Assembly: GCA_037137755.1 (NCBI GenBank)
Contig: JBAXJR010000052.1
Location: 1-14,982 of the forward strand
DNA length: 14,982 nt
Direction: 5' to 3'
From: Methanomicrobiales archaeon
GTDB taxonomy: Archaea > Halobacteriota > Methanomicrobia > Methanomicrobiales > Methanospirillaceae
Position numbers and translations under genes: made by a program. Under the pieces are notes generated by a model. That model did not search any database, was not told the origin of the DNA, and saw only the letters and a list, made by a program, of their open reading frames with translations. Of the stretch, positions 3-14,982 are shown piece by piece (within the stretch, counting starts at the first letter, position 1; the number at the start of each line of letters is the position of its first letter).

Positions 3-416
3 GTAGACACCTCTACGGGATTCGTGGTTGCATGCCTCATGTTGTTCGGCTTCGGGATGGGACTTATGCTCACACCGGTATCCAATATGATCATGAACTC
101 GGTAGCGAGGAACTACCAGGGAATGGTCTCCGGCCTCATCATTGTCGAACGGTTTGCACCGATGTCCATGGGAATCGCTTTATTCAACCTCGTTTTCATG
201 CAGGGGATCATTACGGTTGCCACTCACAACGAGATTACGCGGACAGCCCCTGTGAATATTCAGATTGAGACCCTCATGGCAGGTTTCGACCTGGCCTTTA
301 TCTTTGCGTTCCTGGTCGGGGTCATCATCCTGGTCCTTGCAATCGTCGCACGACAGGAGACGCATCCCGACTACCAGAAGGGTGCTGACGAGCCACTCAC
401 CCCGCCCACGTTATAG
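3..416 (+). CDS. MFS transporter, C-terminal part (DHA2/EmrB-QacA-like); 5'-partial
   Basis: The frame is open from the window edge. It has several hydrophobic helices and the MFS signature LFGFGMGLMLTPVSNMIMNSVARNYQGMVSG. A final helix (GFDLAFIFAFLVGVIILVLAIVA) follows a loop, as in 14-TMS DHA2 exporters. Confidence 0.85.
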   Translation, partial: VDTSTGFVVACLMLFGFGMGLMLTPVSNMIMNSVARNYQGMVSGLIIVERFAPMSMGIALFNLVFMQGIITVATHNEITRTAPVNIQIETLMAGFDLAFIFAFLVGVIILVLAIVARQETHPDYQKGADEPLTPPTL

Positions 417-492
417 GTGGGGAAATCGCCTGACATCACCTTTCAATCCCGGGATTACCGGGAGGACGTTTGGCGGAATTTGCCTGGACATC

Positions 493-1425
493 CTAAAATG
501 GCGTATCGCTCCCACTGTAGCATTCTATGGAATACTCAGAAAAGAGGTCTTCAATTTGCCTGAGATCGGTACTATCAGGGGGTTTTACTTCCCTGCAACC
601 ATACGCTCTCCCAAGAAGACCGTATTTTGATATCCCAAGGTGATGGAGGGGTAGCAGGTTTACTTCATGTTTACCCGTTTCTGCAATAAATTCCGCAGTT
701 GCCAGGATATTTTCCCTTGAATCATTATATCCGGGGATTACCGGTACCCGGAATATCAGCCGGCCCTCCCAGGATGTCGCCATTTTTTTTGCGTTTTCAA
801 GGATGAGCCGGTTGGAAATTCCGGTACCGGCCCTATGCCGATCATCGTTCATGCACTTGAGGTCGAAAAAAACCCAGTCAAGGTAACCGAGGAGTGCATC
901 GAAGTGCTCCCAGGGGGCGTGACCGGATGTCTCCATCGCCGTATGGATATACGAATCAAAGCACCGGGAAAGGAATTTTTTTACAAATGGATATTGTTCC
1001 ATCGGTTCTCCCCCGGATACGGTAACCCCTCCCCCGCTTCCCCAGTACGGGCGGTCCCTCTGTATCTTTTTCATAAGGTCCTCTACCGTTATGAAAAACC
1101 CGTTTACCTGGAGAGCACGGTAATTACAGGCACGGACACAAGTAAAATCGGTACACAGGCTGCAATACTCTCTATGGATTGTAACCGGCAATCCGTCCCC
1201 CGTGATCGTAAGAGCATGGTCCTGGCAGGAGGAAACACATGAATAATTTTTTTCGCACTGGTCCCGGTAATACATCAACTCCCGGTGCGGGTCCTGGCCC
1301 TCGGGATTTGCACACCACCGGCATCTCAACGGGCATCCTTTTACAAAGACAACGGTCCTGGAGCCGGGCCCGTCATGGAATGAAAAACCCTGGAGATCGA
1401 AAAGCAGGCCTGTTTCATCATTCAT
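493..1425 (-). CDS. hpdA: Glycyl-radical enzyme activating enzyme (radical SAM), 4-hydroxyphenylacetate decarboxylase activase
   Basis: N-terminal FSFHDGPGSRTVVFVKGCPLRCRWCANPE carries the CxxxCxxC motif. A ferredoxin-like Cys insert (CxxNxxCxxxC...CxxCx4CxxxC), GVTVSGGEP, HTAMETSG and RVPVIPGYND follow. It is the third gene of the operon. The likely start is ATG 1425, overlapping the hpdC 3' end; the ORF track extends to 1434. Confidence 0.92.
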   Translation of the reverse strand: MNDETGLLFDLQGFSFHDGPGSRTVVFVKGCPLRCRWCANPEGQDPHRELMYYRDQCEKNYSCVSSCQDHALTITGDGLPVTIHREYCSLCTDFTCVRACNYRALQVNGFFITVEDLMKKIQRDRPYWGSGGGVTVSGGEPMEQYPFVKKFLSRCFDSYIHTAMETSGHAPWEHFDALLGYLDWVFFDLKCMNDDRHRAGTGISNRLILENAKKMATSWEGRLIFRVPVIPGYNDSRENILATAEFIAETGKHEVNLLPLHHLGISKYGLLGRAYGCREVKPPDSTDLRQIEDLFSEYSIECYSGSDTPF

Positions 1426-1687
1426 CCGGTGCAACTTCCCATTCGAAATCCTCGCATGTTTTTGCTATCATATCAGGATACGCCAGATATTTCCCCCTGC
1501 AGGTCCCCGGTTCTCCATCGGACTCATGGTAGGAGGTACAGTACTTACATTTTTTTACCGGCAAGAACTGCTCGCACGCTTCTGCATCCGAAATTGTTTC
1601 ATCCTTTTTCACCCGGCACATCCCCCGGAATACGTCTATCTGGATATACTCCCGGCAGTCCTGGTGGCATGGGGCCTTCATCTTCAT
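1418..1687 (-). CDS. hpdC: 4-hydroxyphenylacetate decarboxylase small subunit (2x[4Fe-4S])
   Basis: 89 aa with a duplicated ligand pattern H8-x2-C11-x12-C24-x13-C38 / C47-x2-C50-x12-C63-x14-C78, typical of HpdC/CsdC. It has an ATGA overlap with the hpdB stop (1684-1687) and a GAGGAG RBS upstream. Confidence 0.9.
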   Translation of the reverse strand: MKMKAPCHQDCREYIQIDVFRGMCRVKKDETISDAEACEQFLPVKKCKYCTSYHESDGEPGTCRGKYLAYPDMIAKTCEDFEWEVAPDE

Positions 1688-4374
1688 GGGATCTCCTCGT
1701 ATTCCGTTCTGGCAATAATCTCGTCCTGGATCGGTTTCCCAAGTTCAACCCAGTACTGGGTAAATCCGGCGACCCGTACCATCAGTCCACGGTAGTGTTC
1801 CGGGTGAATTTGTGCTTCCCTGAGGACTTTGGAGTCAACTACGTTGAATTGTATATGGAACCCACCCCGTCTCATGTATGCCCTGATAAATTCGAGGAAC
1901 TTCCGTGCCCCTTCACGGCCTTTAATTACAGATGGGTGGATTTTTACATTCAGCTGGGAGTTCTGTGATTTGGCATGGTCCCAGCATGTTGCAGAATTAC
2001 ATAATGCATAGGGCCCGTTCCGGTCTGTTCCCGGGTATGCTGACAGGGAAGCGTCCGCGTAGGCCGTTCCTTCAAGGCGCCCGTCTGGACCTGCAAGGGT
2101 TACGGCACCCATGGGACCGTGGGTGGAGACCGAGATCTGGCACGCATAGAGTGGTTTCTCATAAAGGGACACAAATTCATGGCACACGGTACAGAACCAG
2201 TCTTCCCAGTCCGCAAGGATACTATCTACATACGGGTCATCATTCCCGTATTTCGGGGCATCGTGGCATAAGGTATGGACCCTGGCGTAGGTACTGGCAT
2301 CAGGTCTCTTTTTCTGGTCAGATAGTGAATAGGAACCGGTCTCTTCGGCGGTATGGTAACCAAAATTATTCAGGAGCACCGACCTTAAGTCGTCAAGCGT
2401 GAAGTTCTTCTCCTCGAAAATATTCTTTTTAATGGACGCCAGGGAGTTAACAAGATTAATACCCCCTGATACCTCGACGTTGAACGTCGTGTTGTACCGC
2501 GACCCCATTTCCCCGATATGCTTTCCTTTTGTAAGGCAATCCGGTTTCAGTACTGAATTGATGACCGGGGGCGTAATCTTTCTCCATGCATCGTGCTGGA
2601 TATTGTTACACCTGCAGAGAATATCGACGGTCTTTCTGAAGTGGTCCTGAAAGGTATCCATGAGATCGTCATACGTCTCTATCGGTTTTTTCCGGGGTGG
2701 GAAAATTCTCTGGCCCGTACGCATGTCCATTCCATCGAAGAGCATCACTTCCAGGAGCTTGGGGAGACCGATGAAATGCACACCGACGGATGTCGCTGCA
2801 CCCGCCCCCCCTGGCAGGTAGTACGTGTGGGCACCAAGCCGTAACGGCATCCAGTTACCTGCCGAGGTTTCAAGACATCCGCCAATTGCCCACGCCCGTG
2901 CTTCCTGCGGGGTCATTCCTTCAGGGCCATAGTTATTCTGGATAAACTCCATGGCTACGCGGTTGTTTACCCAGGCAGGATATCCGGTCCCGGTTTTTGT
3001 GCATTCGATGCCTTTTAACAGGAACTCTTCCGGCAACTTTTCATCGTAGAGCAGGGTCAGCGTTGGCTGGGGGGTGGAACAGGTCATGGCAGATTCAAGG
3101 ATCAGCATTTCCAGTTCGTTTTCCGCATTTGCTCCGTTTTTGTCAAGACCCCCAAGGCAGAGATTATTAAACGTGTTGCTGGAAAGGACACCCCCGATTA
3201 CCCCGGTTGACGCAAAACAATCCAGTTCGGTGAATTTTAACCGCATGCATTCAAGAAGTTCGATGGTGCTTTCCCGCGTGATTGTCCCGTTATCCATGTC
3301 CTGTTTCCACCATGGATACAATACCTGGCCTAGCCGGCCCGGTGAGAGACCGGATATGCAGTCTTCATTCAGCACGGCAATATGAAATGTCCAGCATAAC
3401 TGGAGGGCTTCCCGGAATGAACGGGGCGGGTGAGAGGATATCCAGGTAAGGGTCTCTGCGATTTCGGTATATTCCCGCCTCAATTCTTCATCGCGTTCCT
3501 TTTCTGCAAGTTCCCGGGCTTCCTGTGCATAATTCAGGATCCATTTCTTAATACCCTCAAGTGCGATACATGATGCCTGGTAGAAATAGAGGCGGTCCAT
3601 ACCCGGGTGCCCGGCAACTTCCGCAATTTTTCCTTTGCACCAGGTGATGATGCCATCGATCCCGTACCGGAGAGGATAGTAATAATTTATCACTTCCCGC
3701 CCCTGCGGTAGGGTGAAACCGGAATCGAACAGGCAGATAAGCGAACGCATTATCGATTCTTTTTGTGGATAATCCGGGACGAGCATCTCGTATTTATGCC
3801 CGATATCCTCAACCGACTGGTGCTCCCACTTCCTCACGAGTGCCATGAGAATGGGAAGTTCTTCTCTTCTCATGCCAAATTTGCCTGCAATAGAGACGAC
3901 ATTGCCACTGCTTTTTGTGACATTGCCCCCGCCGGTTCCCATTTTTGTTACCTGGTCATTACTGAACTGGCCGGCTTCCAGTGCTTCCCGGTACAACTCG
4001 TCTTCTTTGTCCAGGAGAAAGAGCTCGGATAACCATGGCATCGGGTAAGAACCCCGGAGATAGCAGGTCCTCCTCATGACCAGCAGTTCCCGGGGAAAGA
4101 TGACGGGGGTCAGGTGTGAAAATGCTGATTTCAGGGCCTCTGCCCTTCGTATTATCGGAATTTCTCCTTCCAGTTCCATCCACCGGCGGGTGTACCAGTA
4201 CGGAAACTCCATGGAAACTGAAGATTTTGATCCGAGGTAGAGGTCCCTGAGTGTCCCGGCCCGCATCGTTGGCTCCTTTGCTACCTCCCGGCCAACAGCA
4301 GGACCTGGTTTATGCTTATAATAATGGGCACTGTTTACGGGATTTTCCTGGTGTGAAGGTATACCGTCTGGCAT
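1684..4374 (-). CDS. hpdB: 4-hydroxyphenylacetate decarboxylase large (glycyl-radical) subunit
   Basis: 896 aa glycyl-radical enzyme with Gly loop RVAG870FTQYW and Cys loop GGC500LE502. S341-G342, F402, H533 and E634 lie at a constant -3 offset from S344/G345/F405/C503/E505/H536/E637/G873 of Clostridium scatologenes CsdB (numbering recalled, not aligned). It is followed by an HpdC-type small subunit and an activase. Confidence 0.92.
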   Translation of the reverse strand: MPDGIPSHQENPVNSAHYYKHKPGPAVGREVAKEPTMRAGTLRDLYLGSKSSVSMEFPYWYTRRWMELEGEIPIIRRAEALKSAFSHLTPVIFPRELLVMRRTCYLRGSYPMPWLSELFLLDKEDELYREALEAGQFSNDQVTKMGTGGGNVTKSSGNVVSIAGKFGMRREELPILMALVRKWEHQSVEDIGHKYEMLVPDYPQKESIMRSLICLFDSGFTLPQGREVINYYYPLRYGIDGIITWCKGKIAEVAGHPGMDRLYFYQASCIALEGIKKWILNYAQEARELAEKERDEELRREYTEIAETLTWISSHPPRSFREALQLCWTFHIAVLNEDCISGLSPGRLGQVLYPWWKQDMDNGTITRESTIELLECMRLKFTELDCFASTGVIGGVLSSNTFNNLCLGGLDKNGANAENELEMLILESAMTCSTPQPTLTLLYDEKLPEEFLLKGIECTKTGTGYPAWVNNRVAMEFIQNNYGPEGMTPQEARAWAIGGCLETSAGNWMPLRLGAHTYYLPGGAGAATSVGVHFIGLPKLLEVMLFDGMDMRTGQRIFPPRKKPIETYDDLMDTFQDHFRKTVDILCRCNNIQHDAWRKITPPVINSVLKPDCLTKGKHIGEMGSRYNTTFNVEVSGGINLVNSLASIKKNIFEEKNFTLDDLRSVLLNNFGYHTAEETGSYSLSDQKKRPDASTYARVHTLCHDAPKYGNDDPYVDSILADWEDWFCTVCHEFVSLYEKPLYACQISVSTHGPMGAVTLAGPDGRLEGTAYADASLSAYPGTDRNGPYALCNSATCWDHAKSQNSQLNVKIHPSVIKGREGARKFLEFIRAYMRRGGFHIQFNVVDSKVLREAQIHPEHYRGLMVRVAGFTQYWVELGKPIQDEIIARTEYEEIP

Positions 4375-4400
4375 GGGGAAAACCTAAAAAATTCTGCTCT

Positions 4401-4442
4401 TACTGGAGAATATATTCTGTCAGTATTAAAAAGTCACTTTAC
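4401..4442 (-). promoter_or_regulatory. Putative hpdBCA promoter with TATA-like box and palindromic operator(s)
   Basis: The minus strand has TTTTTAATA (4424-4432) about 50 nt upstream of the hpdB ATG. Immediately downstream is the palindrome TACTG-g-AGAATATATTCT-gt-CAGTA (4401-4425). An inverted repeat AAAAAG-tca-CTTT (4428-4440) overlaps the box. Confidence 0.5.
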
Positions 4443-4634
4443 CGGCCCTTTGACTAAAAACCCCGGTGCTTTCCGAATAGACCTCAAAATATTTTCCAGC
4501 CAGGTCGTTTTCCAGTTCTTTAAAGAAAGGGGACCGGTTTTCCAGTGAGAGGATACGAACGTGGAGGACTCCATTTCCTGCGGGATCCAGTAAACGGTTC
4601 AGGCAGTTATGAGACCGGCCGAAATTGCAGGGGA

Positions 4635-4727
4635 CATGCCACTTCAGAACCGGAAGATTTCCTTCGTCTTCGCGGAACGGGTGAATTCGTGGGCTTTAAT
4701 GGTTGCCCAGATAGGTGAAGGTCAGGA
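4635..4727 (+). repeat. Dispersed degenerate repeat, copy 1 (segments C+B)
   Basis: 4644-4706 aligns to 6354-6417 with 5 mismatches and 1 gap (TCAGAACCGGARGATTTCCTTCGTCTTCG...GGAACGGRTGAATTC.TGGGC.TTAATGGTTGC). Weaker similarity extends on both sides. Confidence 0.9.
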
Positions 4728-4818
4728 TAAATTATTGTTCAATTCCCGGTTCAAGCAGGATACAGGAGATGGTTTTGACGCAAAAAGGAATTAATGCACG
4801 AATACCGATCAGGTGCAT

Positions 4819-5043
4819 ATGAAATCGATCCATGTTCCCATCATTATTGAGACCGATGAGGATGGGATCTTCATCGTATCCTGCCCGCAGTTCAAGGGTT
4901 GCCATACCTATGTTAAAACCATCGATGAAGCGATTATCCGCATCAGGGAAGCTATCGAACTATGTATGGAAGATTCGCAATCCTCCGAAAATCTCAATAC
5001 TTTCGTTGGATTCCGCGAGGTTGAGATCACCAAGGACGCATAA
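4819..5043 (+). CDS. hicB: HicB-family antitoxin (short form, no DNA-binding domain)
   Basis: IIIETDEDGIFIVSCPQFKGCHTYVKTIDEAIIRIREAIEL matches the HicB partial RNase H fold. The usual Gly of TxGxT is Val (GTT, 4912-4914). It abuts a hicA-like frame. Alternative start is GTG 4813. Confidence 0.85.
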   Translation: MKSIHVPIIIETDEDGIFIVSCPQFKGCHTYVKTIDEAIIRIREAIELCMEDSQSSENLNTFVGFREVEITKDA

Positions 5044-5283
5044 ATGCTTCCTGTCATAAAGGGAAAAGATCTCGTTGCTTTTCTTGAAACGATTGGTTTT
5101 ATGGTCATTCGCCAGAAAGGGTCTCACGTACGGATGAAATCTGATGATGGCTGATATACCACCGTACCAGTTCAGAGTGGCGAAGAGGTCCCGGAGGGGC
5201 TGATGCGTAAAATTATCCGGGAAGATCTTGAAATGAATCTCGAAGATTTTACCGGAGCATATGGAACTTACAAGGGGCGTTAA
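5044..5283 (+). pseudogene. hicA: HicA-family mRNA interferase toxin, interrupted by an in-frame TGA
   Basis: Manual translation gives MLPVIKGKDLVAFLETIGFMVIRQKGSHVRMKSDDG*YTTVPVQSGEEVPEGLMRKIIREDLEM...KGR. The RQKGSH motif is intact. TGA at 5152-5154 sits where Arg (CGA) is expected, and VPxH is changed to VPVQ. Not in the ORF track. Confidence 0.88.
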
Positions 5284-5351
5284 ATATTCCAGGCGTAAGC
5301 CCACATTCCTGAAGTTCCCTTTCGGGGGAGATTTTTAGAAAGGTGAAACAA

Positions 5352-5565
5352 TTGCACAGATTCCTTATCGTTATCGAGAAAGCAGAGAACAATTATTCAG
5401 CATATTCCCCTGATCTTCCGGGATGTGTCGCAACAGTGCAACCCGGGAAGACGCAGAGGAGATGATGCATGAGGCGATTGAGCTCCCATGTCCGTGGACT
5501 CGTCGAAGACTGAAATGCCAGTTCCGGGATTTCATTCATCGGCCTCGTATGTAGCAGTACAGTAA
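5352..5565 (+). pseudogene. hicB: Second HicB-family antitoxin, frameshifted
   Basis: After an AGGTGA RBS (5341-5346) the reconstructed sequence is (M)HRFLIVIEKAENNYSAYSPDLPGCVAT[-1 at ~5436]ATREDAEEMMHEAIEL[+1 at ~5486]HVRGLVED[TGA/+1 at 5511]MPVP...SASYVAVQ*. The PDLPGCVATG-T-E-A HicB signature is recognisable across the shifts. Confidence 0.85.
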
Positions 5566-5656
5566 TAAAAGGTATTACGAGACGATTACGTCCTGGCAAT
5601 AACAATCACAGACCTATTTCTTTTTTCTCTAGGTAAAAAAAGCAGAAAAAATTTTA

Positions 5657-6118
5657 CTACTTCTGCCGGGTGAAGATCTGGATAAAGGCCCTTGCGGTAG
5701 GACCGTCTTCCCCGTACAGGAGATTCATACTATCAGGTCCGGTTAACCAGCCTGTGGAGTACCCCCTATCACTATCGGCCATAATCAATTCCCCGTTTGG
5801 CGAAATCGCCCCGGAGAAATTCTCGTAATACGTATTTCCATCCGGCTTGATGTACTCCTTGTGTCCGGCGAATGCATATCCCTGCTGCTCGGTAATGATG
5901 TATGTCCCGTTATGGTGGCTGAAGAACCCGGAGCCCTGGACATGCCCGGTAGTAAGGCCAGTCCATCGTCCGGTGAGATTCGGGATGCTTGCATTTGACG
6001 TCCCTCCGGATAAGCGGTCCTGCGGGGCTACGGATGGGGCGGCCGGCGGAGATGTGGACATACATCCCGAGACAAGGACCCCGATGATAATGAACAGGAT
6101 AATTACAGCGATCTTCAT
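5657..6118 (-). CDS. Putative lipoprotein of unknown function (beta-rich domain)
   Basis: MKIAVIILFIIIGVLVSG-C signal with a lipobox-like SGC, then a Pro/Ser/Ala linker, then IPNLTGRWTG and alternating beta-strand patterns. ATG 6118 is preferred over 6172. T-tracts follow the stop on the minus strand. Confidence 0.75.
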   Translation of the reverse strand: MKIAVIILFIIIGVLVSGCMSTSPPAAPSVAPQDRLSGGTSNASIPNLTGRWTGLTTGHVQGSGFFSHHNGTYIITEQQGYAFAGHKEYIKPDGNTYYENFSGAISPNGELIMADSDRGYSTGWLTGPDSMNLLYGEDGPTARAFIQIFTRQK

Positions 6119-6344
6119 GAATGGAGTCGTTATCACCCGAGAGCATAACGGTTGCGATCTGGTGTCAGGCATGGATAAGAGTAATTGGTTATCTTTTGTA
6201 TCAAGGCAATGAAGATTCGGTGCGCCGGCGTTTGGTGAACCAATGAGAATTTGCGGGATTATTGATTCACAAATTCAGTCATACAAAAAGATATAATTCC
6301 GGTCTCCAGATTTTTTTTAATACACGCTCAAACGCTTTCGGGTG

Positions 6345-6438
6345 CATGCAACATCAGAACCGGAGGATTTCCTTCGTCTTCGTGGGAACGGATGAATTCC
6401 TGGGCGTTAATGGTTGCGTTGACTGGTGAAGATAAGGA
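6345..6438 (+). repeat. Dispersed degenerate repeat, copy 2 (segments C+B)
   Basis: About 90% identical to copy 1 over 64 nt. Its 3' part (GGAACGGATGAATTCCTGGGCGTTAATGGTTGCGTTGACTGGTGAAG) also matches 8957-9003. Confidence 0.9.
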
Positions 6439-6691
6439 GATTCATCCTGGCGAAGAATCGGGGGGTCAATAGTCGGGGAATGTCAGATAGTAGGGTAAAA
6501 GGGGAATAAATGTAAGATAGAATACGGATGGAGTACATTGGTCTATATATCAGCTCTCGATGCAATGACCGATAATGTGTAGCCAGAATACGTGAATACC
6601 TATATATCATGCGGGGTTGCTATAACCAGTTCATATCATTTTTGGCAATACCGGTCATGGATGACGATTAAGAAAAGAGTCTGGTGAATTT

Positions 6692-6997
6692 TTGACAACT
6701 ACTGCATATTTAGTGAAAAAATTAGGTGTAATGAGTGTCGCAAATGTTGGATCAATTATTGGTATGATTTTCGGAATTATCCTTGGCCTGATAAATGCCA
6801 TTAATCTTGTTCCGGCCTCTTCAATACCCGGTGATTCAATTGTCCTGGGTTTGAGTTCCGGCATTATGACGTTTTTGATAAATGTTATCATGGGTATATT
6901 TTTCGGGTTCCTCGGAGGTGCGATCATTGCATTCATTTACAATTTCGCATTCAGTAAGAAGGGTGGCATCGAGGTAGACCTCGAGTTCAGGGAATAA
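6692..6997 (+). CDS. Small two-TM membrane protein, DUF3566-like
   Basis: TTG start preceded by GGTGA (6683-6687). The pattern VKKLGVMSV - TM - TM ending AFIYN...GGIEVDLE resembles the DUF3566 family. Confidence 0.65.
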   Translation: MTTTAYLVKKLGVMSVANVGSIIGMIFGIILGLINAINLVPASSIPGDSIVLGLSSGIMTFLINVIMGIFFGFLGGAIIAFIYNFAFSKKGGIEVDLEFRE

Positions 6998-7169
6998 TAA
7001 CATTGTTCACTCTTTTGGAATCTTTGCATTTTGTTAAAAAAGGGCGATCTCCATAGACAAGTGAGGGTTTCACCCCACTCTCTGCCCAACCCCTGAAAAT
7101 ATATTCTGTGGGCAGGTTAAACCTGATGTATATGAGATTCAGAAAACGTCTCTTTCCCAAACGTGGGGG

Positions 7170-7326
7170 CTATTGGAGGGGCTAGATCGAAGATTCCCCA
7201 TGAATACAATCCCGGGTGTATGATGAGGCACAACGGGCCTGGGACGCCGAACGGGTGATTCGAAAAGCGGGGACCGGGCGACGTATGGAACCGGAAGATT
7301 TCCAATCGCTGCATTGATTGGCAGGA
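7170..7326 (+). repeat. Dispersed degenerate repeat, copy 3 (segment A + start of C + end of B)
   Basis: 7175-7258 matches 8884-8967 at 76/84 nt. GAACCGGAAGATTTCC (7288-7303) matches 4647-4662. GCATTGATTGGCAGGA (7311-7326) resembles the 3' end of copies 2 and 4. Confidence 0.88.
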
Positions 7327-7359
7327 ATTTTTGGTATTACTCTGCCAATCCAACCTTCT

Positions 7360-7509
7360 TCAATACGGGATAGGCGAATTCATTGGAGCATGAAGTGCTA
7401 CCTGCCTTATCGGGATTTCCACACCAAAATGCCATGCAACCGCAATTATTGTTCCAGCCAGCGAGAGTATCAACGAAAAGATAAGAAGAGATTTCAAAGC
7501 ATCATCCAT
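7360..7509 (-). CDS. 49-aa single-pass membrane micro-protein with LHAPMN motif (paralog 2)
   Basis: MDDALKSLLIFSLILSLAGTIIAVAWHFGVEIPIRQVALHAPMNSPIPY*. GAGGT RBS upstream and a TATTTAAT box at ~7545-7552. It is a clear paralog of 8441-8620 and is below the ORF-track size cutoff. Confidence 0.8.
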   Translation of the reverse strand: MDDALKSLLIFSLILSLAGTIIAVAWHFGVEIPIRQVALHAPMNSPIPY

Positions 7510-7771
7510 TTTCAATACCTCTGATAAAGTATGTCAATCATATCATTAAATAGACTCTGTTTTGAAAAACAAGGGTATTATTTCCAGCTCATTCTGAAAA
7601 GGTCCACCAGACCCGGCCGGTTCCAGGACCCCGACGCCCGGTTCCGGGCGCAGGTAAGTACCTGCCTCCTTATTCTTTTTTACGATTGCCATGGTACTGC
7701 CTGAAACTGTGCAAAAGGTGAACCTCCCGCCCGGTGCGGTACTGATTCTTCCACCGAGAACGCCTTCTTGT

Positions 7772-8185
7772 CTATGGACTTAAAAATTTCATGACCGGCA
7801 CATTGAGATCTCCGAAATTCTGCGTATTGAGCATCTTCACGTGCGATCCTGTCACCCTCTCGTACGTGGTCGTATAAAGGTCCCGGAAGGTAATTCCGGG
7901 ATCTACCTGGACCGCGATCAGGACATCTTCGGTAAACGCATCTGACAGCCACTGTTTGATATCAGGATCGTAAACAGCCCCGAAGGACGGTTCAACGCTG
8001 TTGGCCTCGGTAAAATATAAAAGTCCCTTTGCGGTAATATTCTTCGCCAAACTCTCACCAAAGCAGGTATCCACGAAAAAAACTATCTGCCGGTATTTTC
8101 CTTCACTTGACATGGTGTTCGTGATGCGGGTGAATTCCCCGGCCTTGATGGATGAGTCCGGGAAGGGGAAAACGATATTCCCGGC
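7772..8185 (-). pseudogene. C13-family (legumain/asparaginyl endopeptidase-like) peptidase, 5'-truncated remnant
   Basis: The frame reads AGNIVFPFPDSSIKAGEFTRITNTMSSEGKYRQIVFFVDTCFGES...TEANSVEPSFGAVYDPDIKQWLSDAFT. This parallels legumain G.LVFP...KY.KMVFYIEAC.SGS...TAAN..ESSYA..YD....YL.D. The catalytic Cys (DTC) is kept, but the frame starts right after a TGA, just downstream of where the catalytic His (DHG) should be. Confidence 0.8.
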
Positions 8186-8440
8186 TCAGGGTCGTTGTGG
8201 ACTCATCCTTTAGGTTAGGCAGGGCCGGGTGTGGGGGTTAACGGTCAGCCGGGCCGATCAGGAGCATATATCCACTTCCGGTAGCGGATGCCGGTGCCGG
8301 TTTCTTGCCATGGGCGTTGCATCTGCGGCAATACATGGATTATCAAATGTGCCTGATTGAAAAAAGTCCGGATCTTTCCGGTCGTTTACTTTTAAAATAA
8401 GTTATACTGGTTTGCCCGGCGCATGGAGCGCCGTTCAGGT

Positions 8441-8620
8441 TTAATCGGCCCCTGCCCAGGGATTTGGTTTATTCATGGGCGCGTGAAGCACTGCTGCCTG
8501 AAGGGCAGGAAGATCCACGGCGAAATACCATGCGAGTGCGATGATGGTGCCGATTATTGCCAGTGCTATAACGAATATCACGAGGTTTTTCATTGCGTCG
8601 GATTGTTGAGTTTCGGACAT
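8441..8620 (-). CDS. 59-aa single-pass membrane micro-protein with LHAPMN motif (paralog 1)
   Basis: MSETQQSDAMKNLVIFVIALAIIGTIIALAWYFAVDLPALQAAVLHAPMNKPNPWAGAD*. AAGGT RBS-like sequence upstream. It shares DA.K.L.IF...L...GTIIA.AW.F.V..P......LHAPMN.P.P with 7360-7509. Confidence 0.82.
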   Translation of the reverse strand: MSETQQSDAMKNLVIFVIALAIIGTIIALAWYFAVDLPALQAAVLHAPMNKPNPWAGAD

Positions 8621-8879
8621 GGGATCATTACCTTACTGTCGTTTACTTTTGGAATAACTTATACATGTTTGAAGGTGCGTGGAACACTCCTCTGGAAGGA
8701 GTTCTTTGTCATTTTATTTTTTTAATTTATCTTAACCATGTTTATGGACAGGTGAAGCGCTACCTTGAGATCAGGAACAATGCGGTGTTTCTCTCCGGCA
8801 ATGGCCTGCTTGTGACCGGTCCTCCAACATGCCTTAAAAATTCGATTTTCGTGCAGGATGTCCATGGGTTCTTGAAAGT

Positions 8880-9005
8880 CTATGGAGGGGCGAGATCAAA
8901 GATTCCCCATGAACACAATCCCGGGTCTATGATGAGGCATAACGGGCCTGGGATGCGGAACGGATGAACTCCTCGGCATTAATGTTGCGTTTGATTGGCG
9001 AAGGA
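8880..9005 (+). repeat. Dispersed degenerate repeat, copy 4 (segment A fused directly to B)
   Basis: 8884-8967 matches copy 3 segment A at 90%. It continues as GAACTCCTCGGCATTAATGTTGCGTTTGATTGGCGAAGG, matching segment B of copies 1 and 2. Confidence 0.88.
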
Positions 9006-9210
9006 CTGGAATAAAACATAATAGCGAGCAGGATTTTTTCCTAACCATAGTAATTATCTGATTTATTTTATTTTCCTTGGGCAGGTCTGGGTTTTAACTT
9101 GTCTACGAGAACCGCGAGGGATTTCCGATAACAGGGAGTAGCGCTATGCCTGGGCCACCAACCGGATTAAATCCAAGGGCATATGAACTTGAATTGCTGA
9201 GTCAATTCAT

Positions 9211-9789
9211 ATGAGATCCATTATTCTGACATTAGCCATCCTGGCACTGGTCTTTGCAATGGCGGGGGCCGGGTGTACCACGACGAATCCCCCGGCCACC
9301 ACACCAACCGCACCATCCACTCAGTCTCCGACTGCCATCCCGACATCCACCGTGACGGTGAAGCCCACGGCAACCATGTCTGCCGATCAGCAGCGGGTGT
9401 TCGCGTTTGTCTCCGAGGGGGTCGTATACGGCCGTGAACACGGGAGGCAGGCGTCGCTCGCTGAATTCAATAACCCGAACGGCTCTTTCGTCCGGGGAGA
9501 CCTGTTTATATTCGCAGGTGATTACAACGGGACATCCCTCGCATCCATTGCCCTGCCCCAGCGGGTGAATACGTCTTTCAACAATGATGTCGATGTGACC
9601 GGCCAGTATTACATGCGCAACAAGGTCAACCTCTCACGGAGCGGCGGCGGGTTTATCATCATCTATTTCCCGAATCCAGCCCATAACTTCACACCAGAAC
9701 CGAAGCTCTGCTACGTGCACGATGTTGACGGGACCTATTGGATTGGGGCAGGCATGTATAACCAGTCAAATGTGACGGCCCGACTGTGA
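9211..9789 (+). CDS. Stand-alone single-Cache (sCache_2-like) domain lipoprotein
   Basis: Signal peptide ending AGAG-C, then a Thr/Pro-rich linker, then LAEFNNPNGSFVRGDLFIFAGDYNGT...DVTGQYY...GGGFIIIYFPNP...EPKLCYV...YWIGAGMY, a Cache-2-type fold. There is no cytoplasmic output domain. Confidence 0.85.
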   Translation: MRSIILTLAILALVFAMAGAGCTTTNPPATTPTAPSTQSPTAIPTSTVTVKPTATMSADQQRVFAFVSEGVVYGREHGRQASLAEFNNPNGSFVRGDLFIFAGDYNGTSLASIALPQRVNTSFNNDVDVTGQYYMRNKVNLSRSGGGFIIIYFPNPAHNFTPEPKLCYVHDVDGTYWIGAGMYNQSNVTARL

Positions 9790-9899
9790 GACCTCCCAGC
9801 TGATGCACCAAATGGACTCTGGAGACCTGGACGAATTGCCCGGGGGCAGGAAGACCGGCAGGTGTGGCCTTTGTGCCCGGCATGCCCCCTGCCTCATAA

Positions 9900-10130
9900 A
9901 TTCCATCAGCAGGACCGGCTATCCTGAACCTGATCGCCTGCGCCGGGCTCCTGTTGGTCACTAACCATTTCGAAACTCTGGCGACCATTTCAGTTATCGC
10001 CACGTTGATCCCGTACATTTTCCTCTGCCTCAGCTCGTGGGTATCCTTTACCGATACCAGGTCACGGATTGTCGCCGGCTTTGGCGCACTGTCTACAGCT
10101 GCTATTCTGGGCCTGTATTTTTTTGTATGA
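9900..10130 (+). pseudogene. C-terminal remnant of a polytopic membrane transporter, probably an APC-family amino-acid permease
   Basis: The startless frame AILNLIACAGLLLVTNHFETLATISVIATLIPYIFLCLSSWVSF...RIVAGFGALSTAAILGLYFFV* has three hydrophobic helices. F..LA.ISV...LIPY is typical of late APC TMs. An in-frame TAA lies at 9897-9899 immediately upstream. Confidence 0.6.
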
Positions 10131-10252
10131 TCTTGCTCATAAATTCTTTTTTGAAACAGCGTTCGGACTGGTAAACTATTTGAACAGGAGGATCGCTATA
10201 ACCCATAGCAAACAGGAAATTACGAACAGCAACATGGGGGACAGACACTATC

Positions 10253-12844
10253 ATGAATTTCAATAATTTTACCATCAAATCACAGGAAGCCGTAACGAAA
10301 GCAACGGAACTTGCAACGGCAAAAGAGAACCAGGCCATCGAGACTTCCCATATACTGAAGGGGATGCTGTTGGTAGATGAGAATGTCATACCATACCTGC
10401 TGAGAAAACTGAATGTAAATCTCGATGCTTTCACCGCAGAACTCGACAGCATCATCAGTTCATATCACCAGGTGAGCGGAGGGGAGCAGTACCTCTCAAA
10501 CGATGCCACAAAAGCCCTGCAGAGAGCCATCGCACTTTCCCAGGAATCAAAGGATGAATTTGTCTCCCTTGAGCATCTCCTCCTGGGAATTCTTTCGGTG
10601 AACGACCGTACCTCAAAACTGCTGAAGGAGAACGGGGTCACTGATAAAGACCTGAAAACTGCCATAAGCCAGTTGAGAAAAGGTGCTACAGTAAACAACC
10701 AGGACGCGGAAGAGACCTATAATGCCCTGAACAGGTTTGCCCGGAACCTGAATGATCTTGCCCGCACCGGAAAACTCGATCCGGTCATCGGTCGTAACGA
10801 AGAGATCCGCAGGGTGCTGCAGATCCTTTCACGAAGAACAAAAAACAACCCGATCCTCATCGGGGAGCCCGGCGTGGGAAAAACAGCCATTGCCGAAGGC
10901 CTCGCTCACCGGATCATCGACGGGGATGTACCGGAAAACCTGAAATCGAAACAGATCTATTCCCTCGATATGGGTGCCCTGATCGCCGGGGCAAAATTCA
11001 AGGGAGAATTTGAAGAACGGCTGAAAAGCGTGGTCAAGGAAGTGATCTCCGCCGAAGGGGAAATCATCCTTTTCATTGACGAGATTCACACCCTCGTCGG
11101 GGCCGGTGCCAGCGAGGGTGCAATGGACGCGGCCAATATTCTCAAACCTGCCCTTTCACGAGGGGAATTGCATGTTATCGGTGCAACGACCTTAAAAGAA
11201 TTCCAGAAATATTTTGAAAAGGACAAAGCGCTTGAGCGGCGTTTTCAGCCGGTGATGGTCAATGAACCCGATACCCTGGATGCCATCTCAATCCTTCGCG
11301 GAATCAAGGAGAAATACGAGACCCATCACCATGTACGAATCAAGGATGAGGCAATCATTGCCGCCGTTGAACTTTCGCAGCGATACATCTCCGACCGCTT
11401 CCTTCCCGACAAGGCAATTGACTTAATCGACGAGGCTGCATCAAAGCTCCGGCTCGAGATCAACTCGGTACCGGAAGAACTCGAAACGATAGAACGCAGG
11501 ATCCGCCAGCTGGAAATTGAACGGGAAGCCATTAAACGTGAAAAAGACCAGGGCAAATTGAAGGTCCTGAATGAAGAGATCGCGAACCTGACCGAGGAAC
11601 GAAACCGCCTGAAGGCAAAATGGCAGGCGGAGAAAGATATTGTTGAACAGATACAGTCACGTAACAACGAGATCGAGAAACTGAAATTCGACGCCGAAAG
11701 TGCCCTCCGTACCGGCGATCTGGGCAAGGTGGCAGAGATCCGGTATGGCCGTATCCCGGATATCGAGAAGGCCATGGAGGGATTGAAAGAAAACCTGACC
11801 ATGCTGCAAAAGGACTCCGCAATGGTGAACGAGGAGGTGGACGCAGAGGAGATCGCCGAAGTGGTCTCCCGCTGGACCGGCATTCCCGTGAGCCGGATGC
11901 TGCAAAGTGAAAAACAAAAACTGCTGGGGCTCGAAGCAGAACTACACAAGCGTGTCGTAGGCCAGGAGGAAGCCATCGGGGCAGTTTCCGATGCAATACG
12001 CCGGAGTCGTGCCGGGTTGCAGGACACGAAACGTCCGATCGGGTCGTTCATCTTCTTAGGGACGACCGGTGTGGGAAAGACTGAACTGGCAAAAGCCCTG
12101 GCTGAAATCCTTTTCAACAACGAGAACAGTATGGTGCGGATCGATATGTCGGAATACCAGGAACGGCATACCGTTTCGAGGCTGATCGGTGCGCCCCCGG
12201 GTTACGTGGGATACGAAGAAAGCGGGCAACTGACAGAAGCTGTACGGAGAAAGCCCTATTCCGTGGTATTACTGGATGAAATCGAAAAAGCCCACCCGGA
12301 TGTATTCAATATCCTGTTGCAGGTCCTTGACGATGGCCGTTTGACAGACAACAAAGGCCGTACTGTGGATTTCAAGAATACTATTATCATCATGACATCG
12401 AACATCGGGTCGCACATCATCCAGGAAAACCTGGAACATGTCACCGAAAAAAACCGGGAAGAGGTATTTGATAAAACCCGGGAACAGGTGTTTGACTTGC
12501 TTAAGAAGACCATCCGGCCCGAGTTCCTCAACCGGATTGATGAGATCGTCATGTTCAAACCGCTCACCAAAGATGAGATCCAAACGGTTGTCGAGCTTCA
12601 ACTGGGTATGGTCCAGAAAATGCTCGAGAAGAGTGATATCCGGCTAAGGGCAACAAAGAACGCCATCCAGTTAATTGCTAGCCTGGGCTTTGACCCGCAA
12701 TTCGGTGCAAGGCCGATCAAACGTGTGATCCAGAAAAACCTGCTGAATGAATTGTCAAAAATGATCCTGGAAGGAAACGTAAACAAAGACAAGGAAATCG
12801 TGGTTGACGAGAAAGAAGGAAAGCTGACATTCATGAATACCTGA
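10253..12844 (+). CDS. clpB: ATP-dependent disaggregase ClpB
   Basis: 863 aa with a Clp N-domain, NBD1 ([15 protein letters not shown]), a long coiled-coil middle domain, NBD2 ([12 protein letters not shown] pore loop, LLDEIEKAH) and GARPIKR. Confidence 0.97.
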
Positions 12845-12924
12845 TCCCGGACCTTAAGGATTTAATAGTACTCCACCCTCGCAAAAGGAAAAAGGTTTGC
12901 GATTAACCAAAAAAATTATAGAAA

Positions 12925-14139
12925 TTAAATTTTTGGGGCTATCATCGAAATGTACGATCGTGATACCTGAGCCTGGTTCGTACCCGATTTATTCTTTAAG
13001 AGATATTCAATCAGATCCTGGCCGTGTTTAAGGATAAATGACTGGATCTCATCTTCGTTTGCCGGAGCTTCTGTTGAAAGTGACTCCCCGCACACCCCGC
13101 AATAATCTGGAACCGGGGGCATAATCATGTGACAATTCGGGCAGATTTTTGGCTCTAAGACAGACTTACTTTCCTCATCATCGGCATCTTCAAGGCCATA
13201 GAAACGCCGCATTTCTATATCGATCTCTGTCCCGGTGAGGTGAGCATAGGTCCTGAGCATATTCGAATTAACAGAGCCCCACAAGATCAACTTGATGACA
13301 CTCTCTGACACCCCTTCGCCGACCATATGGGTAATTCGGGAATGAAGGAATAGGTGGGGGGTAATGTGCTTACTGATCCCTGCCCGGGTTGCTAGGCGTT
13401 GGATTTGCCGTATTGCCGCCGGATTTGTAAGACGTGTGCCCCGGTGTTTTACAAACACGGGTGAATCCCCTTCCGGGAAACCAGGATAATCCGCTCTCCA
13501 CTGAGTGATGTACTCTTTCAATGCGATGATGGGGATGTATCTCGGGATATTCGTCTTGAATTTTACGTTCACAACGAGACCCGTTTTGTTGAAGGTGATA
13601 TCGCCCCATTTCATCTGCCCGACTTCACCGATCCGCATCTCACCCTCATAGATCATGGTGATGATTGTTCGGTCGTAACTCCGGTTGCAGGTCGCGATAA
13701 GCAACTTCACCTCTTCCTGGGTGAGAAGGGAGGCCGCAGTCTTTGTCATCGGATTGGCATTGGGAATCTTGATCCGCCGGATTTTCTTTTCGGGCAACTG
13801 GGCATACTCATTTTCGATGAGCCAGTTGAGAAATTGTTTCAGGATAAGGATCCAGTCATGACGGGTGTTCTGCATGAACGGGGTCCCTTTGGAGTTCAGA
13901 CCATTGTTCCTCGCCTCGATGCCGGCATACACATCCCCGATGGTGAGCTCAGGATATGACGACATGAAACGACGCCACCCAATAAGGGTGTACGTGATCT
14001 TGTTTGTCCGTGACAGGCTGATACCTGCGGCAGCTCTTCTCTCATTTACGAACTCATTTATGAGAGAAATGTCTTTCTTCGTTGCAACTCCTTTAGAGAG
14101 CGCCTTTTCGACAGAGCGGCCCATATAGGCCGTTTTCAT
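12925..14139 (-). CDS. Tyrosine recombinase/integrase with C-terminal Zn ribbon; probably catalytically dead
   Basis: YEGEMRIGEV (first catalytic R), FKT (K), HITPHLFLHSR (HxxR Arg replaced by Leu, CTT at 13345-13347), LWG and RTYAHL (Tyr), followed by CPNC...CGVC. The true start is uncertain because the frame stays open ~110 nt further upstream without a start codon. Confidence 0.9.
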   Translation of the reverse strand: MKTAYMGRSVEKALSKGVATKKDISLINEFVNERRAAAGISLSRTNKITYTLIGWRRFMSSYPELTIGDVYAGIEARNNGLNSKGTPFMQNTRHDWILILKQFLNWLIENEYAQLPEKKIRRIKIPNANPMTKTAASLLTQEEVKLLIATCNRSYDRTIITMIYEGEMRIGEVGQMKWGDITFNKTGLVVNVKFKTNIPRYIPIIALKEYITQWRADYPGFPEGDSPVFVKHRGTRLTNPAAIRQIQRLATRAGISKHITPHLFLHSRITHMVGEGVSESVIKLILWGSVNSNMLRTYAHLTGTEIDIEMRRFYGLEDADDEESKSVLEPKICPNCHMIMPPVPDYCGVCGESLSTEAPANEDEIQSFILKHGQDLIEYLLKNKSGTNQAQVSRSYISMIAPKI

Positions 14140-14261
14140 ACAGGAAAACGGTACGTTTGCACTGACATTTGTGGAAGATGTAACAAGAAAAGGTCTGATA
14201 GGTACTACAAGAACTTTTTGTTGGGGCTTTGAACATGGTGTTCTTAAGCCTCAGCCGGGCT

Positions 14262-14280
14262 TTTACATACTGTGTGTAAA
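14262..14280. promoter_or_regulatory. Inverted repeat TTTACA-N7-TGTAAA between the divergent integrases (candidate binding/crossover site)
   Basis: TTTACA (14262-14267) tactgtg TGTAAA (14275-14280), loosely flanked by GGGC/GCCC. A TATA-like TTTATA (14292-14297) is adjacent. Confidence 0.4.
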
Positions 14281-14317
14281 TCAGCCCCCTATTTATAGAT
14301 CCACGCTGATTTAGTGC

Positions 14318-14982
14318 ATGGCTCCCCGAAAAACTGTATTAAAAACGTCCACTTCTGTTACAGGATTTCATTCCATTCGGTCTGATCGGAATAAAAGGGT
14401 GCTCGAGAAGGCGTTGGCTGATAACAGGATCACCGGGGAGGATGCCACCCTGATCAAGGCCTTCGTTTCAGAGCTTGAGTCGGTCCATAATATCGGCACC
14501 CTGCGTGCAATCAAGATTGTATCAACCCTTGTTGGTATCCGGCGATTTATCGGGCCATTCGCAGAACTTACCATCACGGATGTATATGCAGGAATAACCG
14601 AGTTAAAAACGGCGACCAATAAGCATGGGAAACCTTTCAAAAAGAACAGCATCTACGATTTTGTGCGAGTCCTTAAACCATTCTGTCTTTGGATGATTGA
14701 GAATAATCACTCTTCATTACCCGAGAAAAAGGTACTGAAACTTCAGGTCCCAAGCCGGGATCCCATGACCAAGGTTGCCTCAGATCTCCTTACGGTCGAT
14801 GAGATTAATACAATGATCAAGGCCTGCTGCAGAACGGTCGATCGGGCACTTATCATGACTTTGTACGAGGGAGGGTTTAGGATAGGTGAGATCGGGATGC
14901 TGAAATGGAGTGATCTCGTTTTCGATGTCCGTGGTGTGGTGGCGAATGTCCGTTTTAAAACGGAAAAGCCACGATATGTCCG
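14318..14982 (+). CDS. Second tyrosine recombinase/integrase, paralog of 12925-14139; 3'-partial
   Basis: Manual translation from ATG 14318 gives MAPRKTVLKTSTSVTGFHSIR...LEKAL...TLVGIRRF...ELTITDVYAGI...GKPF...LPEKK...PMTKVASDLLT.DEI...DRALIMTLYEGGFRIGEIGMLKWSDL...NVRFKTEKPRYV. It is open to the window end and collinear with the minus-strand integrase. Missing from the ORF track because no stop codon falls in the window. Confidence 0.92.
   Translation, partial: MAPRKTVLKTSTSVTGFHSIRSDRNKRVLEKALADNRITGEDATLIKAFVSELESVHNIGTLRAIKIVSTLVGIRRFIGPFAELTITDVYAGITELKTATNKHGKPFKKNSIYDFVRVLKPFCLWMIENNHSSLPEKKVLKLQVPSRDPMTKVASDLLTVDEINTMIKACCRTVDRALIMTLYEGGFRIGEIGMLKWSDLVFDVRGVVANVRFKTEKPRYV

Follow-up and report, generated by a model that had tools for sequence, protein, structure and literature searches.

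We found that a methanogen contig encodes hpdBCA, the gene set of the p-cresol-forming glycyl radical enzyme (GRE) 4-hydroxyphenylacetate decarboxylase (HPAD). The contig, C52 of the metagenome-assembled genome (MAG) G000, makes up the whole of the stretch that we analyzed (the window, 14,982 bp). The operon is very probably genuine and functional, and a chromosomal resident of a freshwater Methanomicrobiales methanogen. This conclusion builds on the integrity of the genes, their family membership by score and by residues, their native genomic context, their distribution, and the selection acting on them, all of which were observed directly. The operon comprises the following parts:

1684-4374, minus strand: hpdB, HPAD large glycyl-radical subunit, 896 aa.
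1418-1687, minus strand: hpdC, HPAD small (gamma) subunit, 89 aa; its candidate [4Fe-4S] ligands fall into two sets of four.
493-1434 (open reading frame from TTG 1434) or 493-1425, minus strand: hpdA, radical S-adenosylmethionine (SAM) activase, 313 or 310 aa.
4375-4646, minus strand: hpdB upstream region, specific to the G000 context.

In the open reading frames (ORFs) of the window, hpdB, hpdC, and hpdA lie head-to-tail on the minus strand. Read directly from the sequence, the hpdB stop and the hpdC start overlap by 4 nt (ATGA), and the hpdC stop overlaps ATG 1425 of hpdA by 8 nt (ATGAATGA). A sequence-only reading of this DNA had proposed an intact hpdBCA operon at these positions, and the verified ORFs and both overlaps bear this out. 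The true start of hpdA is more likely ATG 1425 (310 aa) than TTG 1434, because three of four same-genus orthologues lack an N-terminal extension and begin at the equivalent of the ATG; the fourth, the G006-type copy L024, aligns with the TTG-start form of the window protein. Except where a contig end truncates a copy, all three genes are intact throughout the archaeal set. Upstream of hpdB, TATA-like AT-rich boxes at 4424-4432 and 4409-4416, which were read by eye only, would form a putative promoter.

Is the large subunit a true HPAD? HpdB scored 1423.6 bits against NF033715, the equivalog model of the HPAD large subunit (cut-off 1150), and 1423.2 bits in the whole-genome scan. Against the indoleacetate decarboxylase (IAD) model NF033718, it reached 724 bits, under the cut-off of 1100. 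Its Pfam domains are the pyruvate formate-lyase-like (PFL-like) domain and Gly_radical (PF01228, 89.5 bits). In a search of solved structures, HpdB aligned end to end with the HPAD of C. scatologenes (2Y8N/2YAJ) at 1015.7 bits, followed at a distance by choline lyase (307 bits), the arylacetate decarboxylase (AAD) 7E7L (249 bits), and 2F3O (229 bits). The sequence-only reading had listed eight catalytic and substrate-binding residues in clostridial spacing, and the structure alignment recovered every one of them: S341, G342, F402, C500, E502, H533, E634, and G870 match 2Y8N/2YAJ with an offset of +3. The catalytic pair C500/E502 lies in GGCLETS, aligned to GGCLESA (Cys503/Glu505 of C. scatologenes), and E634 and H533 align with Glu637 and His536 of the same enzyme. 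We take His536 to be the phenol-site partner of Glu637, a position matched by H533 here. This phenol site separates HPAD from IAD and phenylacetate decarboxylase. The glycine of the RVxG motif is also present, with G870 lying in MVRVAGFTQYW, aligned to RVAGFTQYW of 2Y8N_A. Moreover, when the window copy and 80 homologues were aligned with MAFFT, the eight positions were invariant wherever they were covered. Together, the NF033715 score, the active-site residues, and the sub-threshold IAD score place HpdB in the HPAD family, as had been proposed. PMC13450708 (section 5.4) describes what Cys503, Glu505, and Glu637 do in the Kolbe-type HPAD mechanism, and PMC4979209 also treats the role of Glu637 in HPAD.

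The two smaller genes complete the set. HpdC, which is encoded between hpdB and hpdA as the HPAD accessory subunit is, scored 66.1 bits against NF033716 (cut-off 50). Its residues H8/C11/C24/C38 and C47/C50/C63/C78 align with His and Cys residues of 2Y8N chain B, and we presume that these eight are the ligands of two [4Fe-4S] clusters. HpdA scored 303.3 bits against the general GRE-activase model TIGR02494 (cut-off 174.35). Its CX3CX2C motif (C34/C38/C41) and seven more Cys of a ferredoxin-like insert are invariant in 8 of 8 aligned activases. The earlier assignment of all three proteins to HPAD subunits was sustained for HpdB and HpdC, which exceed their equivalog cut-offs; the activase HpdA has the HPAD activase model as its best family and falls short of the cut-off of that model.

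The operon has the same set of large subunit, small 2x[4Fe-4S] subunit, and activase as CsdBC of C. scatologenes (2Y8N/2YAJ) and HpdBCA of C. difficile. The glycyl radical site, the Cys/Glu pair, the Glu/His phenol site, the Ser-Gly and Phe residues, and the small-subunit ligands of clostridial HPAD are all kept in the archaeal copy. It differs from the clostridial systems in its archaeal host, in an identity of about 57-60% to the Firmicutes copies, in the 4- and 8-nt overlaps of the window genes, and in an activase that scores under the equivalog cut-off. HPADs of uncultured freshwater Bacteroidales, Ignavibacteria, Lentisphaerota, and the lineage of L026/L080 belong to the same family at 65-72% identity. 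These bacterial operons come from the same type of habitat, by their record titles, and are the nearest relatives outside Methanomicrobiales in our tree; in contrast to them, the archaeal copies form a long-stem clade of their own and have a codon usage that fits the methanogen. IAD, phenylacetate decarboxylase (PAD/PhdB), and AAD (7E7L) are likewise glycyl-radical arylacetate decarboxylases with a PFL-like fold. AAD, however, is without a small subunit and differs from HPAD in its active-site residues (PMC13450708, section 5.4), whereas HpdC is present here. The PFL-like GRE 2F3O ('pyruvate formate-lyase 2') is also archaeon-encoded, and its function is unassigned. Unlike window HpdB, it falls outside the decarboxylase class and lacks an HpdC-type subunit. 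Among bacteria with complete genomes, Sporomusa rhizae (L078) carries an HPAD operon at 60% identity in which hpdA lies 1.4 kb downstream of hpdC; Sporomusa is a genus known for p-cresolyl cobamide.

How is the operon distributed among methanogens? HpdB exceeded the cut-off in 4 of the 12 other species of the genus, so that 5 of 13 species carry it when the window is counted. In a first scan, none of 48 genomes of other genera had HpdB over the cut-off. A 400-genome sample of the order returned the same four genus positives and none among the 388 Methanomicrobiales genomes outside the genus, and a 400-genome sample of the phylum returned none, with two other GREs at about 355 bits. The four same-genus copies are 86-96% identical to window HpdB at the amino acid level. 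The closest proteins outside the genus are 72-73% identical, and the next relatives are MAG proteins of Bacteroidales, Ignavibacteria, Lentimicrobiaceae, and Cloacimonadales at 66-70%; some MAG proteins are already auto-annotated as HPAD in databases. Scanning our genome collection for HPAD loci, we kept 80 of 93, of which 64 hold hpdB, hpdC, and hpdA.

We built an HpdB tree of 46 rows by a quick maximum-likelihood search (LG+G4), with support from the Shimodaira-Hasegawa-like approximate likelihood ratio test (SH-aLRT) only. The five Methanomicrobiales proteins form one clade (SH-aLRT 100) on a long stem of 0.33 substitutions per site. This clade is nested in a 21-row clade (SH-aLRT 97) together with the contig L080, which is evidently bacterial given ComEC and PurD beside its operon, and two copies binned to other archaea. 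The sister of the 21-row clade is a Bacteroidota/Ignavibacteriota/Lentisphaerota clade, and the Firmicutes copies fall outside. The operon was most likely acquired by horizontal transfer, because the archaeal clade is nested among uncultured-bacterial and other archaeal-binned copies and because HpdB over the cut-off was absent from the 388 other Methanomicrobiales and from the phylum sample.

Three further copies, L084 (G735), L129 (G793:C166), and L096 (G736), encode HpdB proteins 68-72% identical to that of the window and lie on short contigs binned as Thermoplasmata or 'Euryarchaeota UBA287'. In L084, the neighbors of hpdB are an LctP-family permease and a PaaK-like arylacetate-CoA ligase, and 22 of 40 relatives have matches to the flanks at 63-73% nucleotide identity. 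L096 has SMC and ScpA beside hpdB, and the HpdB copy of G793 has the same sequence as P0007, the nearest protein from outside the genus. In light of these Thermoplasmata- and UBA287-binned relatives, HPAD may be present in more than one archaeal lineage.

The same comparisons bear on the substrate. The archaeal enzyme could be real and yet act not, or not only, on 4-hydroxyphenylacetate (4-HPA) but on a different para-hydroxylated arylacetate, for example 3,4-dihydroxyphenylacetate, or on an analogue of plant or humic origin that is common in lake water. The HPAD of C. difficile also accepts 3,4-dihydroxyphenylacetate, and both the long stem of the archaeal clade and the divergence of about 40% from the characterized clostridial enzymes would suit a shift in substrate. 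C. scatologenes has 4-HPA-forming genes of the HpdDEFG/J/K type, according to PMC13285125; unlike in that organism, tyrosine-to-4-HPA genes are not linked to the window operon, and none adjoin it. However, none of the eight first-shell and catalytic positions varies among the 81 aligned sequences where covered, and HpdB lies 270 bits over a curated equivalog cut-off. We therefore consider a different substrate improbable.

The operon is under purifying selection. Ratios of nonsynonymous to synonymous divergence (dN/dS), with the synonymous divergence (dS) of the pairs compared, were as follows:

hpdB: dN/dS 0.10-0.13 in 10 of 10 pairs, dS 0.15-0.84.
hpdC: dN/dS 0.16-0.26 in 10 of 10 pairs, dS 0.17-0.80.
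hpdA: dN/dS 0.14-0.28 in 10 of 10 pairs, dS 0.14-1.00.

For comparison, among host genes clpB has a dS of 0.51 between G000 and G003, and the heavily codon-biased mcrA has a dS of 0.06-0.31; G012 and G002 are the closest pair for both mcrA and hpdB. The operon has thus diverged on the scale of host genes, which indicates that its residence in these lineages is roughly as old as the divergence of the species. Ranked against 1180 long ORFs of G000, hpdB reaches the 88th percentile in the fit of its synonymous codons to this genome, while its nearest bacterial homologues (L080, L026, and L027) reach the 6th-11th percentile. This fit is supportive only, since one Bacteroidota copy stands at the 74th percentile.

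We also drew per-run contigs from public lake-water and freshwater metagenomes. In the metatranscriptomic run X20, which comes from the same sample as X8, four of the seven contigs that map to the window fall on hpdB, with 1-7 differences each. These contigs are compatible with transcription of hpdB in the window strain or a sister strain; we do not take window parts that lack X20 contigs to be silent. One contig of run X7 delimits a further feature:

443-4646: possible insertion/deletion unit with hpdBCA, about 4.2 kb.

This contig joins position 442 to position 4647 and so skips 4204 nt, that is, hpdBCA plus 272 nt upstream. Its depth is 2.78, and one side of the join is 34 nt long. The homology between G000 and G006 breaks at 446, in agreement with the left boundary of the unit. 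The contig gives a weak hint of an hpd-less allele in the natural population. We saw no clean empty site in the hpd-less genomes G004, G005, and G010, where the region is a mosaic. Neither tRNA genes nor inverted repeats, nor direct repeats bracketing 443/4646, were found around the cassette, and an Rfam search of the window gave no match.

Could the operon be a silent passenger of a variable genomic island, unused and heading for loss? Three observations speak for such a passenger: gene fragments and two recombinases occur in the mosaic region around the operon, no more than 5 of the 13 species in the genus carry it, and run X7 holds the possible hpd-less allele. Against it, the three genes are intact in all copies not cut by a contig end, dN/dS stays at 0.10-0.28 at dS of up to about 1.0, the codon usage is well adapted to the host, and RNA-library contigs fall on hpdB. 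A silent passenger is therefore very unlikely.

Where does the operon sit? Its flanks hold the following features:

3-416, plus strand: 3' end of a major facilitator superfamily (MFS) efflux gene of the DHA2/EmrB type; native left flank, continuing from contig C49.
4780-14982: native right flank with a small conserved ORF, lipoprotein and Cache genes, clpB, and two tyrosine recombinases, from Pfam and nucleotide matches.
4832-5059, plus strand: small conserved ORF, 75 aa, adjoining the hpd unit upstream.
12925-14139, minus strand, and 14318-14980, plus strand: tyrosine recombinases, by Pfam.

The archaeal context of the operon is real. The suggestion that the neighborhood belongs to a Methanomicrobiales methanogen is confirmed by mcrA in the bin (979 bits) and by both flanks, which match genomes of the same genus and family at 72-91% nucleotide identity. 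The G000 bin consists of 106 contigs (2.64 Mb, 90.6% complete, 1.6% contaminated). The tetranucleotide composition of C52 is ordinary for this bin (rank 59 of 153 chunks), a match that is circular because composition was used for binning, so the case for the host leans on linkage. On the left, C49 ends with the same 55 nt (15406-15460) with which C52 begins, and the MFS gene reads across both; the two contigs therefore probably form one stretch of about 30.4 kb. The MFS gene scored 228-260 bits against TIGR00711 and has orthologues (87-89% nucleotide identity) and paralogues (about 64-73%) throughout the genus and family, closed genomes included. On the right, 4400-14982 has nucleotide matches in 12 of 12 other genus genomes and in closed family genomes. 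Within it, clpB (10253-12844, plus strand) is 89% identical to that of the single-contig genome G016 and 82% to that of G017, and the Cache-domain lipoprotein gene is 91% identical to its counterpart on G004:C3. Many family genomes match the region around the small ORF (about 4780-5283) at 72-88% identity. The ORF itself had no Pfam or NCBIfam match at E <= 1e-4, and by eye we take it to resemble antitoxins of the HicB/UPF0150 type.

Other genomes place the operon among methanogen genes independently. G006 shares the MFS-side context of G000, with an extra 2.2 kb between hpdA and the MFS gene that is 87-91% identical in nucleotides to other genus genomes. In G012, the operon lies on a 22.8-kb contig with native genes on either side: an MBL-fold gene, which ends 26 nt from hpdA, is 78-82% identical in genus genomes of 10 and 20 contigs, and an upstream TetR/ferredoxin pair is 89% identical to G010 and 85% to the closed genome G014. 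The G002 operon has a G012-type context (91% nucleotide identity). Homology between the G000-type and the G012/G002-type copies is limited to 475/479-4384 and ends 10 nt upstream of the hpdB ATG. A search of archaeal genomes for hpdBCA, which the sequence-only reading had called for, thus recovered the operon in four sister species in native contexts. With at least two contexts and three assemblies placing the operon amid native methanogen DNA, mis-binning or a chimera is very unlikely.

Per-run contigs were also informative at the operon edges. A contig of X8, which has a different study code, covers 344-1257 with zero differences and runs from the MFS end into hpdA. A contig of X2, a run that may be the source sample, covers 4171-4846 with zero differences and runs from hpdB into the native-like upstream region.

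An artefact, in which an operon of a co-occurring bacterium (such as a Bacteroidales with 66-68% identical HpdB from a habitat of the same kind) was mis-binned or joined as a chimera in the repeat-rich region near 4630-4727, can be set aside as extremely improbable. In its favor, the contig is a short 15-kb piece of a fragmented MAG, assemblers mis-join at repeats and one of about 100 nt stands 256 nt upstream of hpdB, the agreement in composition is circular, and many HPAD-bearing bacteria are among the collected genomes. Against it, methanogen DNA lies on both flanks, the independent 22.8-kb contig of another species (G012) and G006 embed the operon in native genes, the five archaeal copies are mutually closest (86-96% amino acid identity versus <=73% to anything else) and have diverged on the scale of host genes, and unitigs bridge both junctions.

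Several observations weigh against a functional, resident operon and set the limits of our confidence in it. HpdA scored 347.5 bits against NF033717, its best family, under the 420 cut-off. The linkage in G000 rests on assembled contigs. Of the two junctions that the sequence-only reading had proposed to check, X8 bridges the left, and the right (4374-4780) is bridged only by the X2 contig, possibly of the source sample; the right junction lacks an independent bridge because the X7 and X8 contigs end at the hpdB start codon or within 9-14 nt of it. All five hpd-positive genomes are fragmented MAGs of 106-710 contigs, and the better-assembled genus genomes (5-20 contigs) are without the operon. 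The RNA contigs could stem from carried-over DNA, and their match of 95-99% means that they possibly come from a sister strain. The HpdB tree is a quick search without an IAD or PAD outgroup, and it does not resolve the immediate sister of the archaeal clade or the donor. Finally, no dedicated 4-HPA transporter, 4-HPA-forming gene, or conserved regulator is linked to the operon.

How would the archaeal enzyme work? HPAD activity, 4-HPA as the substrate, lateral transfer, and a physiological role are predictions from sequence, and for the HPAD-type mechanism of archaeal HpdBCA we hold such a prediction with high confidence. HpdA, through its CX3CX2C motif and ferredoxin-like insert, would use SAM and a low-potential reductant to generate a radical on Gly870 of HpdB. 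The radical would then move to Cys500. In a Kolbe-type reaction, the Cys500 thiyl radical would oxidize the carboxylate of 4-HPA while Glu634, with His533, takes the phenolic proton. CO2 would depart, and the benzylic radical would regain a hydrogen from Cys500, re-protonated by Glu502, to give p-cresol. HpdC, with its two predicted [4Fe-4S] clusters, would be the accessory subunit that marks a true HPAD. As for its history, the operon would have come into the genus by horizontal transfer from an HPAD lineage of anoxic freshwater microbes. Purifying selection would have acted on it while it diverged alongside the species, some of which would since have moved it to another site or lost it.

What might a methanogen gain from p-cresol formation? 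Our suggestion, made with low confidence, is that the operon disposes of 4-HPA, either imported or self-made via indolepyruvate:ferredoxin oxidoreductase (IOR), and that p-cresol is released. Release would perhaps give a competitive benefit as for C. difficile, in which such a benefit has reportedly been described, to judge from the title of a study. Methanogens assimilate arylacetates into aromatic amino acids through IOR. G000 encodes IOR (834.8 bits, over the cut-off), which makes 4-HPA a plausible intracellular or imported metabolite. It also encodes a homologue of ADP-forming acyl-CoA synthetase (517 bits, under the 567 cut-off), and a search of the genome for a PaaK-type phenylacetate-CoA ligase found only a 26-bit match. 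IOR-type assimilation of arylacetates is mentioned for Methanobacterium in PMC13285125.

A more far-reaching proposal, which we think unlikely, is that the methanogen runs an arylacetate/tyrosine side-metabolism that ends in p-cresol, which when released would act against bacterial competitors, and that the HPAD subclade may circulate among archaea. In one version, tyrosine may be converted to 4-HPA by an aminotransferase, IOR, and the ADP-forming acyl-CoA synthetase homologue; if true, this route would supply reduced ferredoxin and ATP that feed methanogenesis. In a second version, 4-HPA may be taken up from lake water.

Two other roles were considered and rejected. The neighboring MFS gene raised the possibility that decarboxylation is coupled to energy conservation through its product. 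That protein is an efflux member of the DHA2/EmrB type, and its gene is convergent to hpdA; it lies 2.2 kb from hpdA in G006 and on other contigs in G012 and G002. We dropped this idea because the linkage is not conserved. The sequence-only reading had also raised p-cresol as a lower ligand of cobamides, an idea that found no support in the counts of ThiC-like genes (PF01964), with which the operon showed no association. All 13 genus genomes have 2-4 such genes, among which a benzimidazole synthase, if there is one, is not distinguishable. Of the 5 hpd-positive genomes, 1 has an intact third copy, as do 3 of the 8 hpd-negative genomes. That third copy is split or has in-frame stops in several of G001, G007, G010, G011, and G012; G002, G004, and G008 have it intact, and G005 has it mostly so.

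The DNA to the right of the operon has features of its own. The repeat of about 100 nt occurs at 4630-4727, 6340-6438, and 8883-9010, and also at 7174-7258 and 8115-8154, with a spacing of about 1.7 kb in a poorly coding mosaic region at 4.4-9.2 kb of the window; a further copy lies at G000:C49 10062-10159. It stands 100-250 nt upstream of small plus-strand ORFs, belongs to no Rfam family, and within G000 occurs on C52 and C49 only. C49 also carries copies, 84-93% identical, of several window segments. A fragment of 113 aa from a C13 peptidase is encoded at 7772-8113 (minus strand) of the window; its intact 752-aa paralogue, with a periplasmic-binding domain and a C13 peptidase, lies at G000:C49 7038-9296 (minus strand). 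The clpB gene is 89% identical in nucleotides to that of G016, a closed genome of another genus (dS 0.46), and 82% identical to that of the same-genus G008 (dS 0.86). The closer match to the other genus, beside two tyrosine recombinases, suggests lateral exchange of the clpB/recombinase part of the island within the family.

A literature search combining HPAD, hpdB, or glycyl radical with archaea or methanogens found no report of an archaeal HPAD, although supplementary lists might name such hosts. According to a 2026 GRE review, all PFL-like GREs of characterized function are bacterial, and archaeal homologues are without assigned function. The hpdBCA operon is therefore of interest as an archaeal GRE whose function is predictable residue by residue. 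Moreover, because this bacterial-type operon is under selection in an archaeal genus, patchily distributed (5 of 13 species), and found in at least two contexts, it offers a compact model for how accessory metabolism is gained, relocated, and lost in methanogens. If the enzyme is active, methanogen physiology would gain a carbon transformation outside methanogenesis, and p-cresol, a toxic, bacteriostatic phenol that has until now been attributed to fermenting bacteria, would also come from hydrogenotrophic methanogens living in anoxic lake water. Some methanogens, then, may make p-cresol.

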